DNA of 64,000 nt from Escherichia coli (GCF_024223415.1 NZ_CP100502.1); one strand, 5' to 3'; positions 2,863 to 9,442 are shown, numbered from the stretch's first letter. Notes: generated by a model from the letters alone, not told the origin. Made by a program: numbers and translations.

Positions 2863-3804
2863 GTGAGTAAGAAGAAAAACACCACAACGCCCACGCCGCA
2901 TGATGCCGCGTTCCGGTCGTTCCTGGCGAATCCCGACGTCGCCAGAGATTTTCTGGAACTGCATCTTCCTGCGGAGTACCGGCAGTTGTGCGACCTGTCC
3001 ACGCTGAAGCTGGAACCCGCCACCTTTGTTGAGCCGGACCTGCATCAGTACGCCAGCGATATCCTCTGGAGCGTGAAAACCACCGGGGGTGAAGATGGTT
3101 ATGTTTATACGCTCATCGAGCACCAGAGCACCGAAAATCTGTACATGCCTTTTCGCATGTTACGCTACAGTGTGGCGGCGATGCAGAGACATCTGGAGCA
3201 GCACAAAACGTTGCCACTGGTCATTCCGGTGCTGTTCTATCACGGTGAGCGCAGCCCGTACCCGTACAGCATGAACTGGCTGGACTGTTTTGAGAATCCG
3301 GCGCTTGCGGCTAAAATATACACAAAGCCGTTTCCGCTGGTTGATATCACTGTCGTTGATGACAATGAAATCATGAACCATCGCCGGATGGCCGCACTGA
3401 CGCTGCTGATGAAGCATATCCGTCAGCGGGATATGCTGATGTGTCTGGACAACCTGGTCAGAGCACTGCAGGACATCCAGGATGAAGAGCAGATTACAGT
3501 TCTTTTCAACTATCTGCTTAATGGCAGCGAACATGTAACGGTTGAATTTTTGCAGACGCTGGCGCAGCGACTGCCGCAGCACGAGGACAGCATTATGACA
3601 CTGGCAGAACGTCTTAAGCAGGAAGGTATCCAGCAAGGTATCCAGCAGGGTATCCAGCAGGGTATCCAGCAGGGAGTTCAGCAGGGGGCGCTTCAAAAAG
3701 CACGGGAAATCGCCCGGGAGCTCCGGAACGCGGGAATGCCGGCAGCACAAATCTGTCAGCTGACCGGACTTTCTGAAGCTGAACTGAAGAACATCACTCA
3801 CTGA
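2863..3804 (+). CDS. Rpn-family (YhgA-like, PD-(D/E)XK) recombination-promoting nuclease, 313 aa, GTG start
   Basis: N-terminus VSKKKNTTTPTPHDAAFRSFLANPDVARDFLELHLP is typical of E. coli RpnA-E/YhgA-like proteins; SD aggagg at 2853-2858; C-terminal tail with GIQQ repeats; ORF-table start at 2806 is a TTG extension. Confidence 0.8.
   Translation: MSKKKNTTTPTPHDAAFRSFLANPDVARDFLELHLPAEYRQLCDLSTLKLEPATFVEPDLHQYASDILWSVKTTGGEDGYVYTLIEHQSTENLYMPFRMLRYSVAAMQRHLEQHKTLPLVIPVLFYHGERSPYPYSMNWLDCFENPALAAKIYTKPFPLVDITVVDDNEIMNHRRMAALTLLMKHIRQRDMLMCLDNLVRALQDIQDEEQITVLFNYLLNGSEHVTVEFLQTLAQRLPQHEDSIMTLAERLKQEGIQQGIQQGIQQGIQQGVQQGALQKAREIARELRNAGMPAAQICQLTGLSEAELKNITH
3625..3684 (+). repeat. Five tandem 12-bp units (ggtatccagcaR) encoding (GIQQ)n inside the Rpn C-terminal tail
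   Basis: Direct reading: ggtatccagcaa ggtatccagcag ggtatccagcag ggtatccagcag ggagttcagcag. Confidence 0.9.
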
Positions 3805-3812
3805 TGAGAGCC

Positions 3813-3841
3813 AAAAGGCCCGGCAAAATGCCGGGCCTTTT
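3813..3841 (+). terminator. Rho-independent terminator after the Rpn gene
   Basis: Stem ggcccggc / gccgggcc with loop aaaat, followed by tttt. Confidence 0.75.
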
Positions 3842-3865
3842 GCCAGCAGGAGCAGAGAAAACAGT

Positions 3866-4036
3866 ATGACGATTGCAGAACGTCTTATACAGAAAGGTTT
3901 TGAAAAAGGTGCTCTTGAAGTGGCGCGGGAAATAGCCTGCCGGCTTCGGGATATGGGCTGGACGCCGGAACGGATTCAGGAGGCCACGGGACTTTCCGGT
4001 GAAGAACTGAAAAAACTGTTTCCTGATGAGCAGTAG
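3866..4036 (+). CDS. Small protein (56 aa) paralogous to the C-terminal tail of the upstream Rpn protein (RpnS-like)
   Basis: Not in ORF track (<60 aa). ATG 3866, TAG 4034-4036; MTIAERLIQKGFEKGALEVAREIACRLRDMGW... aligns with the Rpn tail MTLAERLKQEG...ALQKAREIARELRNAGM...; hairpin follows at 4037-4053. Confidence 0.5.
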   Translation: MTIAERLIQKGFEKGALEVAREIACRLRDMGWTPERIQEATGLSGEELKKLFPDEQ

Positions 4037-4066
4037 CCTGGCATTCTGCCAGGCTGTGAACCACGC

Positions 4067-4318
4067 TCACACATCCTCTGCCGTTTCCCCCAGTTCATTT
4101 TCCAGACGCCTGATGATATCTGCCTTGCGCATCCCCTGCATGTGAGGCAGCAGGTCACGGACTGAAAGTGCCTGGGTGGTCCTCCAGACGGTGACATCCA
4201 CCTGTTCCGCATTTTCCCAGGCGTGCCATGTTCTCTGTGTCACGCCAAATTCTCTGGCCGCTTTTTCGCGTGACCAGAGCATGCTTTTTCGCCAGATTCG
4301 CAGTTCCCAGCCGGTCAT
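4067..4318 (-). CDS. Small helix-turn-helix (XRE/Cro-like) DNA-binding protein, 83 aa
   Basis: ORF track; HTH-like segment WSREKAAREFGVTQRTWHAWE; operator-like palindromes immediately upstream of its start. Confidence 0.55.
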   Translation of the reverse strand: MTGWELRIWRKSMLWSREKAAREFGVTQRTWHAWENAEQVDVTVWRTTQALSVRDLLPHMQGMRKADIIRRLENELGETAEDV

Positions 4319-4331
4319 AAAACACCTTTGA

Positions 4332-4420
4332 AAAAGTGAAAAAACTTCACTTTATTTTATCACCATAACCACCAAATCAGCGCGAAAAATAAGTGTGAAA
4401 AAGTGAAGGAATTTCACTTT
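4332..4420. promoter_or_regulatory. Promoter/operator region with two inverted repeats AAGTGAA-N-TTCACTT
   Basis: aaagtgaaaaaacttcacttt (4332-4352) and aagtgaaggaatttcacttt (4401-4420) directly upstream of the HTH gene. Confidence 0.45.
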
Positions 4421-4519
4421 TTTTGATTGTAGGTGTCGTGCTGTTTTCTCTGTTTTCACCTGTGCGGGAGTGGTGTGCCAGTGACCACCACATGCCATTG
4501 TTGCGCCGTCGTTTTTCTT

Positions 4520-4855
4520 CAGTCGCGCCGGATGCGGCGCTCCCTGCACACCTTACGGTGTGTAAGGCCACTGCGCCTGATGGCGCAGCTGTCTCTGCCT
4601 GTCTGCCGCCGCACTGCGGCCTGTTCTCCGCAGATGGACTTTCCGGGGGTACATACACGACCACATCCCGTTTCAGTCGTCCAGGGGAGAGATGTACCAG
4701 CCACAAAACTTTTTGCCGCAGGCGTCAAAAACTTTTGCGTCTGCCCCCGGACAACTGCCCCGTGACGTGGTGAGCGTCCCCCGTCGGAAAGGTCCACTGC
4801 GGGGAAATCCCCGAAGACCCGGACGGCAGAAGGAGCTTCGCTCCTCCGGGAAATG
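4520..4855 (+). promoter_or_regulatory. Frpo/ssi-like repeat copy B (candidate single-stranded-DNA promoter), ending just before the SD/ATG of the 4898 gene
   Basis: Paralog of 1625-1960; shares blocks ggcgctccctgcacaccttacggtgtgtaaggc and tggactttccggggg...ccccgtgacgtggtga...ggaaaggtccactgcgggga. Confidence 0.5.
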
Positions 4856-4897
4856 ACCTGGCTGACCCGGCAGTCGTGACGATGAGGAGACAATGTG

Positions 4898-5746
4898 ATG
4901 AATCAGACTTTACCCACTGCTGACCTGAATACTGCCGGCACGACAGATGTTATTCCGTCTGTGGCCATCGACCGCATCATCGCGCAGCGTAACGAAGGTA
5001 TTGCACTGTTCATGCAGGCGATGGAATGCCTGGCGACAGCGCGCAGGATTCTGCTTGATGCGTCAGGTGATATTTTTCTTTACGGTTTTGAAGACTGCGT
5101 GACCGACTCCGTTCGGTGCATGGATAAACCGGAAGAAGCGAAAAGGAATATCACCCGTCTTGCCGACCGGAAAATCTGGGACCGCCTGATGACGGATACG
5201 GGGATGTACACCTTCATGAGTTCATGTCAGCGTGATGAGTGGAACAGCCAGCTGATGAGCGACACCTGTCCTGAAATCACCCTGGACAATGTACTGGCAA
5301 CTTTTCGCCATCTGAATGCCAGTAAGATGCAGACATTTGAACAGGGACTGATTGATGTCTACCGGAAATTGTCATGGGATTACAGAACCAATAATCCCTG
5401 CCGTCTGGGCAAGAGAATCATTATTGAAAACCTGCTGTACCGCTGGAGTAACGGGCGTGTTACGCTGGACTGCAGCGGACGGGAGGCACTGGATGACCTG
5501 GTACGTCCGTTTTATCTGCTGGAGGGGCGCAACGTTCCTGACTTCCGGAGCAGCATCGGGGCGCAGTACGGTGAATTTATCGGGAACGGCGACAATGTCG
5601 GTAAGCTGTTAGAAGGGGAATATTTTACGGTGCGTGGCTACCAGAAAGGGACCGTACACATTGTCTTTAAGCGTCCTGACCTTGTTGAAAAACTGAATGA
5701 TATTATTGCACGGCATTATCCTGGTTCATTGCCGCCACGAGTCTGA
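4898..5746 (+). CDS. Hypothetical leading-region protein, 282 aa
   Basis: ORF track (4895 is GTG; ATG at 4898 has SD gaggag 8 nt upstream); terminator follows. Confidence 0.6.
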   Translation: MNQTLPTADLNTAGTTDVIPSVAIDRIIAQRNEGIALFMQAMECLATARRILLDASGDIFLYGFEDCVTDSVRCMDKPEEAKRNITRLADRKIWDRLMTDTGMYTFMSSCQRDEWNSQLMSDTCPEITLDNVLATFRHLNASKMQTFEQGLIDVYRKLSWDYRTNNPCRLGKRIIIENLLYRWSNGRVTLDCSGREALDDLVRPFYLLEGRNVPDFRSSIGAQYGEFIGNGDNVGKLLEGEYFTVRGYQKGTVHIVFKRPDLVEKLNDIIARHYPGSLPPRV

Positions 5747-5756
5747 TTAAACAGAA

Positions 5757-5787
5757 AAGCCCTGGTATTTATGCCGGGGCTTTTTTT
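5757..5787 (+). terminator. Rho-independent terminator
   Basis: Stem gccctgg / ccggggc followed by ttttttt. Confidence 0.75.
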
Positions 5788-5830
5788 CTGTAATCATCAT
5801 AATATCAGAACATGATGTGACATTGTCACA

Positions 5831-6172
5831 TCAATTGTTGTTCATATCGATGCCATCTTTCCTGGCTGAATCTGTCTTTTTAGATGCTGTTTTAGAGGAA
5901 GAACGGCGGGATGGCTTTTTCGATTCTGCTTCCCGAATAATGTCACGAAGTGCCTTCTCTCCTACTTCATACCCTGCATTTTTGAGCGTATCACGAACAT
6001 CTGCCAGTGTATAACCCTTTGTCCTTACCAGAACAATAATGTCATCACGAATGGCATCAAGAAAATCACGCAATGTTTTCCGTTGAGCGGTGAGATCTGG
6101 CAATTCCGATAAAGCAGCTTTTGCCAGCTGGATGTCATCATCTGAGTAAAATTTTTTAGAAGCCATTGGCAC
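5831..6172 (-). CDS. Hypothetical protein with Lys/Ser-rich basic C-terminal tail, 113 aa, adjacent to oriT and divergent from nikA
   Basis: ORF track; basic tail suggests nucleic-acid binding; function not recognisable. Confidence 0.45.
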   Translation of the reverse strand: MPMASKKFYSDDDIQLAKAALSELPDLTAQRKTLRDFLDAIRDDIIVLVRTKGYTLADVRDTLKNAGYEVGEKALRDIIREAESKKPSRRSSSKTASKKTDSARKDGIDMNNN

Positions 6173-6199
6173 TTTCTCTCCGTTTCATGTTGAAGTCTG

Positions 6200-6360
6200 A
6201 TTTTATCATCAAAAACTGACTCCTGGCAGGGCTGCGCCCTGCCTCTGCCGTCTGCATAAGACTATGATGCACAAAAATAACAGGCTATAATGGCCTGAAA
6301 AACGGGACAGGATGTGCAATTGTAATACCGTCACACGCGACGCTATTACAATTGCCATCT
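6200..6360. other. oriT region (origin of transfer); contains a perfect 12-bp inverted repeat gcaattgtaata (6316-6327) / tattacaattgc (6344-6355)
   Basis: Non-coding stretch immediately upstream of nikA-nikB; inverted repeat read directly; nick site not determinable by eye. Confidence 0.6.
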
Positions 6361-6399
6361 GGTCAGGGCTTCGCCCCGACACCCCGTAAGGAGCCTGAA

Positions 6400-6732
6400 G
6401 TGAGTGATAGTGCGGTAAGAAAGAAAAGTGAGGTACGGCAAAAGACAGTTGTCAGGACACTCAGATTCTCTCCTGTTGAGGATGAAACCATCAGGAAAAA
6501 AGCTGAAGATTCCGGACTTACTGTATCTGCTTACATCCGAAATGCAGCACTGAATAAGCGAATTAACTCCCGTACAGATGATGCTTTTCTGAAGGAGTTA
6601 ATGAGACTGGGAAGGATGCAGAAGCATCTGTTTGTTCAGGGAAAAAGAACCGGTGACAAGGAATACGCAGAAGTGCTTGTTGCCATAACCGAACTTACAA
6701 ATACATTGCGTAAACAGTTAATGGAAGGTTGA
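6400..6732 (+). CDS. nikA: NikA, relaxosome accessory protein (ribbon-helix-helix), 110 aa, GTG start
   Basis: SD aaggag at 6388-6393; 110 aa matches R64 NikA as I recall; directly precedes the relaxase gene. Confidence 0.8.
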   Translation: MSDSAVRKKSEVRQKTVVRTLRFSPVEDETIRKKAEDSGLTVSAYIRNAALNKRINSRTDDAFLKELMRLGRMQKHLFVQGKRTGDKEYAEVLVAITELTNTLRKQLMEG

Positions 6733-6742
6733 GGATTCTCCG

Positions 6743-9442
6743 GTGAATGCAGTCATTCCGAAAAAGAGAAGGGACGGCAAGTCTTCGTTCGAAGACCTGG
6801 TATCCTACGTCTCTGTCCGGGATGACATGACCGATGAGGAACTGGATTTATCTTCTTCTTCGCAGGCTGAACAACCGCACCGAAGCCGTTTCAGTCGCCT
6901 TGTTGATTATGCGACACGTCTTCGAAATGAGTCATTCGTGGCGCTGGTTGATGTCATGAAGGACGGCTGCGAATGGGTCAACTTTTATGGTGTCACCTGC
7001 TTTCATAACTGTACTTCTCTTGAAACTGCCGCTGCAGATATGGAGTACATTGCCCGGCAGGCACACTATGCAAAAGATGACACTGATCCTGTTTTTCACT
7101 ACATCCTTTCCTGGCAGTCACATGAAAGCCCGCGTCCGGAACAGATTTATGACAGTGTACGTCATACGCTGAAATCACTCGGCCTTGCCGACCATCAGTA
7201 TGTCTCTGCCGTGCATACTGATACAGATAATCTGCACGTCCATGTGGCTGTTAACCGGGTACACCCTGAAACGGGTTATCTGAACCGGTTATCCTGGAGT
7301 CAGGAAAAACTCAGTCGTGCCTGCCGTGAGCTTGAACTGAAGCATGGTTTTGCTCCGGATAACGGTTGCTGGGTCCATGCACCGGGAAATCGTATCGTTC
7401 GCAAAACCGCCGTTGAACGTGATCGCCAGAACGCGTGGACACGCGGGAAAAAACAAACTTTTCGCGAGTATGTCGCGCAGACAGCGGTCGCTGGTTTACG
7501 CAGTGAACCTGTAAATGACTGGTTATCCCTGCATCGTCGTCTTGCGGAAGATGGTCTGTACCTGTCTCAGATGGACGGAAAATTTCTGGTGATGGATGGC
7601 TGGGATCGCAACAGGGAAGGTGTACAGCTTGACTCGTTTGGTCCCTCCTGGTGTGCAGAAAAACTCATGAAAAAAATGGGTGACTACACGCCAGTACCAA
7701 AAGACATTTTCAGCCAGGTGGAAGCACCAGGACGCTATAATCCGGACTTCATTGCCGCTGATGTTCGCCCGGAAAAAATCGCTGAAACAGAAAGTCTGCA
7801 GCAGTATGCCTGTCGTCATCTTGGAGAACGTCTGCCGGAAATGGCACGGGAAGGACGGCTGGAAAACTGCCAGGCTATTCACCGCACACTGGCTGAAGCG
7901 GGATTATGGATGCGTGTTCAGCATGGTCACCTGGTTATCTGTGACGGTTATGATCATAACCAGACTCCCGTTCGTGCTGACAGCGTATGGTCGCTGCTGA
8001 CGCTCGACAATGTGAATCAACTCGATGGTGGCTGGCAGCCTGTACCAACAGATATTTTCCGCCAGGTTACGCCAACAGAACGCTTCCGTGGTCGTCGTAT
8101 GGAGAGCTGTCCTGCGACCGATAAAGAATGGCACCGTATGCGTACAGGCACGGGGCCGCAGGGGGCTATCAAACGCGAACTGTTTTCTGACAAAGAAAGT
8201 CTGTGGGGATACAGCATCAGCCATTGTAGCCCTCAGATTGAAGAAATGATCACACAGGGTGAGTTTACCTGGCAGCGTTGTCATGAGCTGTTTGCACAAC
8301 AGGGACTGATGCTACAGAAACAACATCACGGGCTTGTTGTCGTTGATGCCTTTAATCATGAGCAAACGCCGGTGAAGGCCAGCAGCATTCATCCTGATCT
8401 GACACTGGGGCGTGCAGAGCCACAGGCCGGACCTTTTGTGAGTGCCCCAGCAGATTTGTTTGACAGGGTGCAACCTGAAAGTCGCTATAACCCGGAGCTG
8501 GCTGTCAGTGACAGGTACGGGGTCAGCAGTAAACGTGACCCAATGCTGCGCCGGCAGCGACGTGAAGCCAGAGCTGAGGCCCGTGCTGACCTGCGTGCCC
8601 GCTATCTGGCATGGCGTGAACAATGGCGTAAACCAGATCTGCGTTATGGGGAACGTTGTCGGGAAATTCATCAGGCATGCCGTCTGCGGAAGTCACACAT
8701 TCGTGCGCAGTACGATGATCCGGCATTACGTAAGCTGCATTATCACATTGCAGAAGTTCAGCGAATGCAGGCATTGATCAGGCTGAAAGAAGACATCAGG
8801 GATGAGCGACAGAAACTTATTGCTGATGGGAAATGGTATCCACCCTCTTACCGTCAGTGGGTCGAAATTCAGGCTGCTCAGGGAGACAGGGCTGCTGTAT
8901 CGCAGCTGAGAGGCTGGGATTATCGCGATCGCCGTAAAGACAGGTCACGCACAACGACGACAGACCGCTGTGTCGTGCTTTGTGAACCGGGCGGAACGCC
9001 GGTATACGGTAATACCGGTGATCTCGAGGCCCGTCTGCAGAAGAACGGGAGTGTTCGTTTCCGTGACCGTCGGACGGGAGAGTTTGTCTGTACGGATTAT
9101 GGTGACAGGGTTGTTTTCCGTAATCACCATGACCGCAATGCGCTGGCAGATAAACTGGATTTGATTGCACCGGTATTATTCGGGCGTGATCCACGCATGG
9201 GTTTTGAACCAGAAGGAAACGACAAACAATTTAACCAGGTCTTTGCTGAAATGGTTGCCTGGCATAATGTGACAGGCCGTACCGGTCACGAAGACTACAG
9301 GATTACGCGACCGGACGTGGATCATCACCGTGAAGGAAGTGAACGCTACTACCGCGATTATATCGCGGCGAACAGCAACAATGACGCATCACTGCCTCCG
9401 CCGGAGCAGGATAAACGCTGGGAACCGCCTTCTCCAGGTTAA
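6743..9442 (+). CDS. nikB: NikB relaxase (MobP-type), 899 aa
   Basis: ORF track; N-terminal HxH motif region (HTDTDNLHVHVAVNRVHPETG); length equals R64 NikB (899 aa) as I recall. Confidence 0.85.
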   Translation: MNAVIPKKRRDGKSSFEDLVSYVSVRDDMTDEELDLSSSSQAEQPHRSRFSRLVDYATRLRNESFVALVDVMKDGCEWVNFYGVTCFHNCTSLETAAADMEYIARQAHYAKDDTDPVFHYILSWQSHESPRPEQIYDSVRHTLKSLGLADHQYVSAVHTDTDNLHVHVAVNRVHPETGYLNRLSWSQEKLSRACRELELKHGFAPDNGCWVHAPGNRIVRKTAVERDRQNAWTRGKKQTFREYVAQTAVAGLRSEPVNDWLSLHRRLAEDGLYLSQMDGKFLVMDGWDRNREGVQLDSFGPSWCAEKLMKKMGDYTPVPKDIFSQVEAPGRYNPDFIAADVRPEKIAETESLQQYACRHLGERLPEMAREGRLENCQAIHRTLAEAGLWMRVQHGHLVICDGYDHNQTPVRADSVWSLLTLDNVNQLDGGWQPVPTDIFRQVTPTERFRGRRMESCPATDKEWHRMRTGTGPQGAIKRELFSDKESLWGYSISHCSPQIEEMITQGEFTWQRCHELFAQQGLMLQKQHHGLVVVDAFNHEQTPVKASSIHPDLTLGRAEPQAGPFVSAPADLFDRVQPESRYNPELAVSDRYGVSSKRDPMLRRQRREARAEARADLRARYLAWREQWRKPDLRYGERCREIHQACRLRKSHIRAQYDDPALRKLHYHIAEVQRMQALIRLKEDIRDERQKLIADGKWYPPSYRQWVEIQAAQGDRAAVSQLRGWDYRDRRKDRSRTTTTDRCVVLCEPGGTPVYGNTGDLEARLQKNGSVRFRDRRTGEFVCTDYGDRVVFRNHHDRNALADKLDLIAPVLFGRDPRMGFEPEGNDKQFNQVFAEMVAWHNVTGRTGHEDYRITRPDVDHHREGSERYYRDYIAANSNNDASLPPPEQDKRWEPPSPG

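Follow-up and report, generated by a model that had tools for sequence, protein, structure and literature searches.

Introduction

The regulator Aca2 (e.g. that of Pectobacterium phage ZF40; PDB 7vjo/7vjp/7vjq, 7ezy) is a protein of 115–125 aa. Its gene follows an anti-CRISPR or anti-defence gene within one operon, whose promoter is repressed by Aca2. The C proteins of RM systems (C.AhdI, C.Esp1396I, C.Kpn2I, C.EcoT38IS) come together with a co-transcribed nuclease, have two palindromic operators upstream of their small HTH gene and follow an activate-then-repress logic. In the IncW plasmid R388, ArdK, KorA and others are reportedly autorepressors located near or in the establishment region, and a transcriptional overshoot is said to follow transfer: the repressor-free recipient first permits a transient burst, which subsequently gives way to steady-state repression. 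The R388 repressors act on multi-gene establishment operons transcribed from dsDNA promoters. In contrast, the establishment genes of IncI1 plasmids use ssDNA promoters. Frpo/ssi hairpins drive an early burst of expression and are off upon double-strand conversion (PMC9849209, PMC12672017), as in plasmid F with its Frpo-driven transient expression (PMC9849209). The elements ssi1-3 of ColIb-P9/pESBL are class-1 ssDNA promoters (PMC12672017; PMC10104558), and for those of pESBL promoter activity was detected in recipients by RNA-seq and 5'-RACE (PMC12672017).

Here, we analyse a locus in which a gene for a small helix-turn-helix (HTH) protein, two palindromes and a predicted ssDNA promoter are direct neighbours. 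It is part of a stretch of 64,000 nt (the window), which represents the leading and transfer region of a ColIb-P9-type IncI1 plasmid. The reading to which we assign a probability of roughly 70% is that the HTH protein is a dimeric XRE-type repressor, with Aca2 as its closest solved relative, which most likely only switches itself off via two palindromes in its own promoter.

Results and discussion

An antisense gene in the leading region of IncI1 plasmids

Positions 3800–4950 of the window are 100% identical to NC_002122.1 (37128–38278), and this segment was found in about 2,000 PLSDB plasmids. The genes nikA (6352–6732, plus strand) and nikB (6743–9442, plus strand) belong to the same leading/transfer region, with oriT directly upstream of nikA (nikA/nikB/oriT span 6200–9442). 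Since the transferred strand exits oriT in 5' to 3' direction into the leading region, the T-strand is the minus strand. Therefore, genes on the plus strand, which in the leading region include ardA, a 144-aa ORF, an Rpn-family nuclease gene and a DUF4942 gene, can be transcribed from the T-strand. The HTH gene ('ygeA'/pESBL Hp21; WP_000148285.1) occupies positions 4067–4318 of the minus strand, and as its sense strand is the T-strand, it is not transcribable from the incoming DNA. The sequence-only reading had counted it as one of only two leading-region genes with this orientation, which agrees with the RefSeq annotation. The other one is the MobC-like yggA gene (5831–6172, minus strand; 113 aa; 'MobC' in pESBL RefSeq) between the DUF4942 gene and oriT. 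At the same place and in the same orientation as yggA, three of the related loci described below (L003, L006, L008) have a gene of ~100 aa, and yggA scored as non-essential (0.99) in the pESBL TnSeq screen.

The 83-aa ORF, which is present in the ORF listing as well as in RefSeq, is a real gene. It starts with ATG, and a Shine-Dalgarno sequence, AGGTG, can be read from the sequence 4 nt upstream (4323–4327, minus strand). In seven variants from the IncI complex, only 3.6% of the columns of the gene are variable; nearly all nucleotide changes are synonymous and the protein is identical in six of the seven. WP_000148285.1 is common to IncI1 and IncK2/Z plasmids despite a difference of 5–6% in the flanking DNA, and the sampled IncIγ/K1 variant differs in two C-terminal residues and in no others. 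Comparison with the pESI-type allele, which is 86% identical, yielded a dN/dS ratio of 0.08, pointing to strong purifying selection on the protein.

The HTH protein has an XRE fold related to Aca2

At the level of Pfam, the protein matched HTH_31 (PF13560) with 23.5 bits (cut-off 27; E = 7e-5) and HTH_3 (PF01381) with 16.8 bits (cut-off 23), both below the gathering score. HTH_31 was also matched by 37/37 aligned members of the family (E <= 0.1; lowest value 1.2e-7). Structure prediction had been named beforehand as the test that the HTH fold would have to pass, and AlphaFold2, run on the family alignment, returned a confident XRE fold (pLDDT 91.2). The five predicted helices comprise residues 3–12, 17–24, 28–35 (recognition helix), 42–60 and 65–75; that is, the predicted structure has the five-helix architecture of lambda-repressor-like folds with helices 2 and 3 forming the HTH. 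Thus, the XRE/Cro-like HTH that had been proposed for the 83-aa minus-strand protein is weak in Pfam but firm at the fold level (pLDDT 91).

The best matches in structure as well as in sequence are to Aca2, whose HTH domain is homologous to the protein studied here. However, with 83 aa it lacks the C-terminal domain of Aca2. Consistently, the Aca2/YdiL family model PF08965 gave no match to the protein at E <= 1 and hit just 2/37 family members weakly (E about 0.016). Judged by these comparisons, it is an Aca2-related XRE protein and not a member of the Aca2 family. The family is small: a search of 1.8 billion clusters yielded 79 representatives at E <= 1e-3. Distant homologues are found in a few phages (phrog_6962). 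The 'ygeA' of plasmid F was considered as a homologue and discarded, being located downstream of Frpo1 and unrelated to the HTH gene. The supplementary files of Samuel et al. 2024 hold no 'YgeA' entry.

Two unique palindromes mark the promoter region of the HTH gene

Two perfect inverted repeats are located upstream of the HTH gene. The proximal operator, AAAGTGAA-N5-TTCACTTT (4333–4353), extends from −35 to −15 relative to the ATG, and the distal operator, AAAAAGTGAA-N5-TTCACTTTTT (4398–4422), lies at about −63 from the predicted start, with 67 bp between the two centres. Both repeats had been recognized in the sequence-only reading and both exist as exact copies of AAGTGAA-N5-TTCACTT, but they had been placed 1–3 nt off. 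With up to two mismatches allowed, the motif is present at two places in the 64-kb window, both of them exact, where 0.31 would be expected by chance, and at no site in the remaining 33.4 kb of ColIb-P9. The exact palindromes are the sole such sites in the plasmid of about 97 kb. When up to four mismatches were tolerated in the window and the 33.4-kb rest of ColIb-P9, the best further candidates had three mismatches, and none of these was near a promoter of interest. A scan of genome contigs with AAAGTGAA-N5-TTCACTTT returned, among the matches listed, taxa unrelated to the Enterobacteriaceae hosts.

The predicted extended −10 element of the HTH gene, TGATAAAAT (TGnTAAAAT; 4354–4362, minus strand), abuts the proximal operator and is invariant in the seven variants. 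It is preceded by a weak −35 element read from the sequence, CTGATT (4376–4381, minus strand), with a 16-nt spacer. A consensus promoter and terminator scan of 3800–5000 called no promoter on either strand, the HTH promoter remaining below the 9-of-12 threshold; the scan thus supports neither a divergent dsDNA promoter for the DUF4942 gene nor, at this threshold, the HTH promoter. As the proximal operator ends 15 nt before the ATG, after the −10 element, it would cover the predicted transcription start, near 4347.

The core of the proximal operator (4334–4352) has 0/19 variable positions in the seven IncI-complex variants, while about 25–28% of the positions vary in the 5' UTR, in the spacer between the operators and in a neighbouring small ORF. 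Invariant cores alongside variable spacers fit recognition of specific bases and not stem stability. The half-sites of the distal operator are kept in six of the seven. The intergenic segments 4353–4400 and 4420–4521 are unusually divergent among otherwise near-identical IncI plasmids: over 4250–4520, ~825 of roughly 2,000 records are just 90–95% identical, and the HTH protein is invariant.

Two other interpretations of the upstream region were considered and dismissed. A minus-strand ORF annotated in RefSeq (4352–4549; 'hypothetical protein' WP_001412266.1), which would overlap with both operators, is almost certainly spurious, because an indel in a T-run (in the variants L018 and L019) as well as stop codons (in L021) break its frame. 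An RNA hairpin in the 5' UTR of the kind known for Aca2 is unlikely, since transcription is predicted to start within the left arm of the proximal operator; at most a 5-bp stem would be left.

Operators and protein covary in related loci

To follow the layout over larger distances, we used eight related loci on other plasmids and contigs, encoding proteins with 47–86% identity (L003, L005, L006, L007, L008, L011, L012, L014); L003 is an IncFIB plasmid with a MOBP relaxase and L005 (CP052816.1) is the pESI-like megaplasmid of Salmonella Infantis. In 8/8 a palindrome ends 13–23 nt upstream of the ATG, and in seven of these loci (8/9 including the window) TAAAAT abuts the proximal operator, L007 having TAAAAA instead. 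A second site further upstream is present in five, at a distance of 67 bp in L005 and of 54–57 bp in L003, L006, L011 and L014. The 54-bp spacing belongs to L014, whose distal site is degenerate, and the other three have 56–57 bp, which differs from 67 bp by about one helical turn. Conservation of the operator spacing in homologues had been named earlier as a check: 67 bp is shared with pESI, and the four other loci have 54–57 bp. In all related loci, the operator motif occurs only upstream of the HTH gene.

In the more distant clade, the half-site GTGAA is replaced by GTGCA, symmetrically in both arms; homologues with 47–57% identity on other MOBP plasmids have the same layout with this exchange. 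The GTGCA half-site coincides with replacement of Q28, the first residue of the recognition helix, by L. The pESI allele carries L28 together with mixed GTGAA/GTGTA arms. Position relative to the −10 element, phylogenetic footprint and covariation with the protein in distant homologues all point to the palindromes as operators of the HTH protein, as had been surmised. Together, palindromes and promoter layout provide strong, albeit indirect, evidence for a dimeric repressor that would occlude its own promoter.

Wherever a related locus offers enough context, the HTH gene alone has antisense orientation within a set of genes typical of leading regions (antirestriction, N6-methyltransferase, DUF932, DUF1281, hok, psiB/ssb). 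It always adjoins an ssDNA-promoter hairpin, and in the four loci whose sequence includes oriT it is located within ~2–2.5 kb of oriT. The operators abut a segment of 400–600 nt that folds as a long T-strand hairpin (z = −8.35 in L011), is homologous among the related loci and shares short stretches with the flanks of Frpo/ssi elements. The protein-coding neighbours of this unit of hairpin, operators and HTH gene vary on both sides. The cassette with its antisense HTH gene may reflect an inherited synteny of MOBP leading regions or, alternatively, functional coupling.

A different context is seen for homologues in IncL/M-type plasmids and contigs, which are full-length with 31–37% identity and whose operons also contain Mrr-like or PLD-type nuclease genes. 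In pCTX-M3 (L002, 6001–6829), an annotated restriction endonuclease directly follows the HTH homologue in the same direction, while in two further loci the nuclease is encoded two genes downstream (PLD-type in L013, 6001–7186; Mrr-like in L015, 6001–7307). A recombinase gene and parMR come next in L002 and L015.

The neighbouring ssDNA promoter and the DUF4942 gene

The sequence-only reading had placed the HTH gene directly upstream of the second copy of a Frpo-like element, and this assignment holds. The segment 4522–4850 (minus strand) shares 82% identity with 1631–1956, 80% with the copy that precedes ssb and 74% with a part of the Frpo1 region of F. Folding of its T-strand gave −118 kcal/mol (z = −6.9), a stability reached by 0/100 shuffles. 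It thus combines the two features of class-1 elements, homology to Frpo/ssi and a long hairpin that is stable on the transferred strand. Counted from oriT, it probably corresponds to ssi1 of ColIb-P9. The hairpin is predicted to be active on the T-strand and to drive plus-strand transcription of the DUF4942 gene. The module of HTH gene and operators is located outside the hairpin, and neither the other Frpo/ssi copies of the plasmid nor F possess it.

The DUF4942 gene (~4895/4898–5746, plus strand; YgfB/YdiA, methyltransferase-like) is the first leading gene after oriT in the direction readable from the T-strand and diverges from the HTH gene. Its product matched Pfam DUF4942 with E = 4e-51 and phrog_6263, 'DNA methyltransferase', with E = 1e-18. 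Methyltransferase-domain proteins of the YdiA/YgfB family have a median position of 1 in leading regions and are encoded in T-strand orientation (Samuel et al. 2024, supplementary table). The DUF4942 protein may be a candidate for a first-in anti-restriction methylase.

In the pESI-like plasmid, an IS200/IS605 element (tnpB) has inserted inside a Frpo/ssi remnant (L005, 3302–4764), and the leading region of ColIb-P9 contains a TnpB gene between psiA and ardA. Insertion sequences that target ssDNA may favour Frpo/ssi hairpins.

On its other side, the HTH gene converges with a 56-aa ORF (3866–4036, plus strand) likened to free-standing small proteins of the 'RpnS' type. This ORF is similar to the C-terminal tail of the Rpn nuclease encoded next to it (332 aa; YhgA-like, PF04754; 2806–3804, plus strand), and its region is the most variable one nearby, with 27.6% variable columns plus indels in the seven IncI-complex variants. 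The Rpn-family gene itself contains a tandem 12-nt repeat, ggtatccagcag (3627–3690, plus strand), which encodes GIQQGIQQGIQQGIQQGVQQG and could represent a linker of variable length. Between the two convergent genes lies a hairpin with a perfect 9-bp stem, AGCCTGGCA-ttc-TGCCAGGCT (4035–4055). Possibly, it acts as a bidirectional terminator, which would make the HTH gene monocistronic; a T-run is missing, and the terminator scan of 3800–5000 did not pick it up. A search of 3500–6500 against Rfam gave one sub-threshold chance match.

What else could the HTH protein do?

The sequence-only reading had suggested that the protein may shut down the early-expressed genes once the plasmid is double-stranded. 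The timing would be right, as the HTH gene can be expressed only after double-strand conversion, and the operators indeed sit between the HTH gene and the adjacent ssi copy. Moreover, further MOBP plasmids and contigs retain the order of HTH gene, operators, hairpin and leading gene, despite variation in the last of these (DUF4942, DUF932, or ORFs of 110–140 aa). However, the idea found no backing in the sequence, where the operators are restricted to the promoter of the HTH gene: none is present at the other two ssi copies, at the hairpins of ardA, klcA and M.EcoGIX or elsewhere on ColIb-P9. About 100 bp separate the two existing operators from the ssi homology, and the hairpin transcript is expected to start ~450 bp downstream of them, which is the wrong geometry for occluding the hairpin promoter. 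The scan of 3800–5000 revealed no sigma-70-like promoter towards DUF4942, and manual inspection for a conserved divergent promoter beside the distal operator in the window, L003 and L011 brought up nothing convincing. In addition, the early transcriptome of the IncI1 plasmid pESBL attributes shut-off to ssDNA promoters becoming inactive once double-stranded (PMC12672017), and loss of the hairpin in dsDNA already accounts for the phenomenon. Plasmid F shows transient expression although it has neither an HTH homologue nor the operator, and pESI keeps gene and operators even though IS200/605 has split the adjacent ssi element and the DUF4942 gene is gone. Finally, Hp21 of pESBL (68116–68367), which we confirmed to be identical to the HTH gene of the window, was classified as 'non-essential' with a score of 1.00 for maintenance as well as for transfer in a transposon screen (PMC4288162), so that insertions are neutral in both respects. 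We therefore regard repression of the early Frpo/ssi-driven genes, or at least of the DUF4942 block, as quite unlikely. Very unlikely, in our estimate, is a variant in which the module would be a partner of the first ssDNA promoter after oriT and lock the hairpin against re-formation in the double-strand phase. The protein, made only after the complementary strand exists, would bind beside the long imperfect palindrome, and self-repression of the divergent promoter would remove the negative supercoiling that favours cruciform extrusion. The hairpin promoter would thereby be kept from re-forming and the first leading operon would be silent in vegetative cells, amounting to an Aca/C-protein-like timer adapted to the transition from single- to double-stranded DNA.

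The main targets might also reside off the plasmid, in the host, competing plasmids, phages or RM-like modules, in which case the local operators would merely set the level of a trans-acting protein, reminiscent of the cross-talk and exclusion of the C-protein type. The extreme conservation across IncI1, IncK/Z and IncIγ with its low dN/dS ratio, together with the lack of a second target on the plasmid, would fit such a role, as would the distant homologues encoded by a few phages and those of the IncL/M type, whose nuclease operons resemble RM controllers. This reading is unlikely, though, and the pESBL TnSeq data, obtained in laboratory E. coli-to-E. coli matings, revealed no phenotype, although a conditional one may have gone unnoticed there. 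An RM controller proper would be expected to accompany a nuclease gene: at the IncI1 locus two operators are present, but no co-oriented downstream gene exists in the window, and nuclease operons occur exclusively among the distant IncL/M-type homologues. The operator sequence is also not known to be related to C-boxes. Weak NCBIfam similarity to MqsA and HipB (E = 0.04–0.1) and structural matches to HigA2, HipB and MqsA could hint at the antitoxin of a type II toxin-antitoxin pair (HipB/HigA/MqsA-like). Such a pair requires a co-transcribed toxin and does not tolerate loss of the antitoxin, and this interpretation has to be rejected since there is no partner gene and TnSeq was neutral. That is, no co-oriented gene accompanies the HTH gene, whose ATG follows the operator after 15 nt; the only candidate downstream, a GTG-start minus-strand ORF at 3885–4070, was discarded as a gene, its frame being interrupted by stop codons in variants; the neighbours differ at every homologous locus; and transposon insertions, which should not be allowed in an antitoxin gene, are tolerated (non-essential = 1.00). 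The antitoxin reading is thus largely refuted and extremely improbable. Equally hard to credit is the notion that the palindromes are no protein sites at all but chance A/T-rich repeats, terminators or ssDNA hairpins serving ssi. They are A/T-rich, and each could form a T-strand hairpin of 8–10 bp beside the ssi hairpin. However, both are exact, with no further copy on the plasmid; their placement with respect to the −10 element and the ATG is fixed, and their cores are invariant while the spacers vary. Moreover, the symmetric change of the half-sites tracks the protein clade, and the other ssi copies do without such palindromes.

Proposed autoregulation in the duplex phase

Autoregulation, our preferred reading, would work as follows. 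A dimer of the HTH protein would bind the two palindromes of 19–25 bp in its own promoter region. On the proximal site, which adjoins the −10 element TGnTAAAAT and spans the predicted start, it would exclude RNA polymerase, thereby causing negative autoregulation, whereas the distal site, one promoter-length upstream, would probably add cooperativity or fine-tuning. A template for the HTH gene arises only with synthesis of the complementary strand, and therefore the gene should be silent during the ssDNA phase. It would then fire in a burst in the first duplex, in a cell that is still free of repressor, and subsequently settle at a low autoregulated level. On the plasmid, its own intergenic region would be the sole target, and the blocks driven by Frpo/ssi would not be under its direct control.

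This arrangement departs from the known systems in several respects. In contrast to Aca2 genes, the HTH gene is apparently monocistronic, divergent and without an upstream ORF, and as it is on the non-template strand, it is not expressible at plasmid entry. The nearest anti-defence-like gene, encoding the DUF4942 protein, diverges from it and has an ssDNA promoter of its own. In contrast to C-protein genes, it has no co-transcribed nuclease, and in contrast to the R388 repressors, no operator is detectable at the establishment genes.

Autoregulation alone is an incomplete explanation of so conserved a protein, which must do something else, since conservation is strong and yet its own promoter is the only detectable target. 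Constant adjacency to an ssDNA-promoter hairpin and proximity to oriT hint at functional coupling beyond autoregulation.

Mechanistically, the module is unsurprising, as autoregulated XRE/Aca2-like repressors with paired operators are of a well-known kind. Its placement is notable: the gene is expressible solely from duplex DNA and is located beside the first ssDNA promoter. Being one of only two leading genes without a template on the incoming strand, it lends itself as a natural marker for the conversion of single- into double-stranded DNA. In addition, Q28 with GTGAA versus L28 with GTGCA constitutes a testable specificity pair. Plasmids of the IncI complex rank among the major vehicles of resistance genes, ESBL genes included, and as anti-defence islands their leading regions are a field of active study. 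In about 2,000 sequenced plasmids, an essentially invariant, hitherto uncharacterized gene is present in this region. Viewing it as part of a self-contained repressor-operator pair disposes of a tempting account of how early genes are shut off, for which no support was obtained, and also points to a family of Aca2-related regulators that resides in plasmid leading regions.
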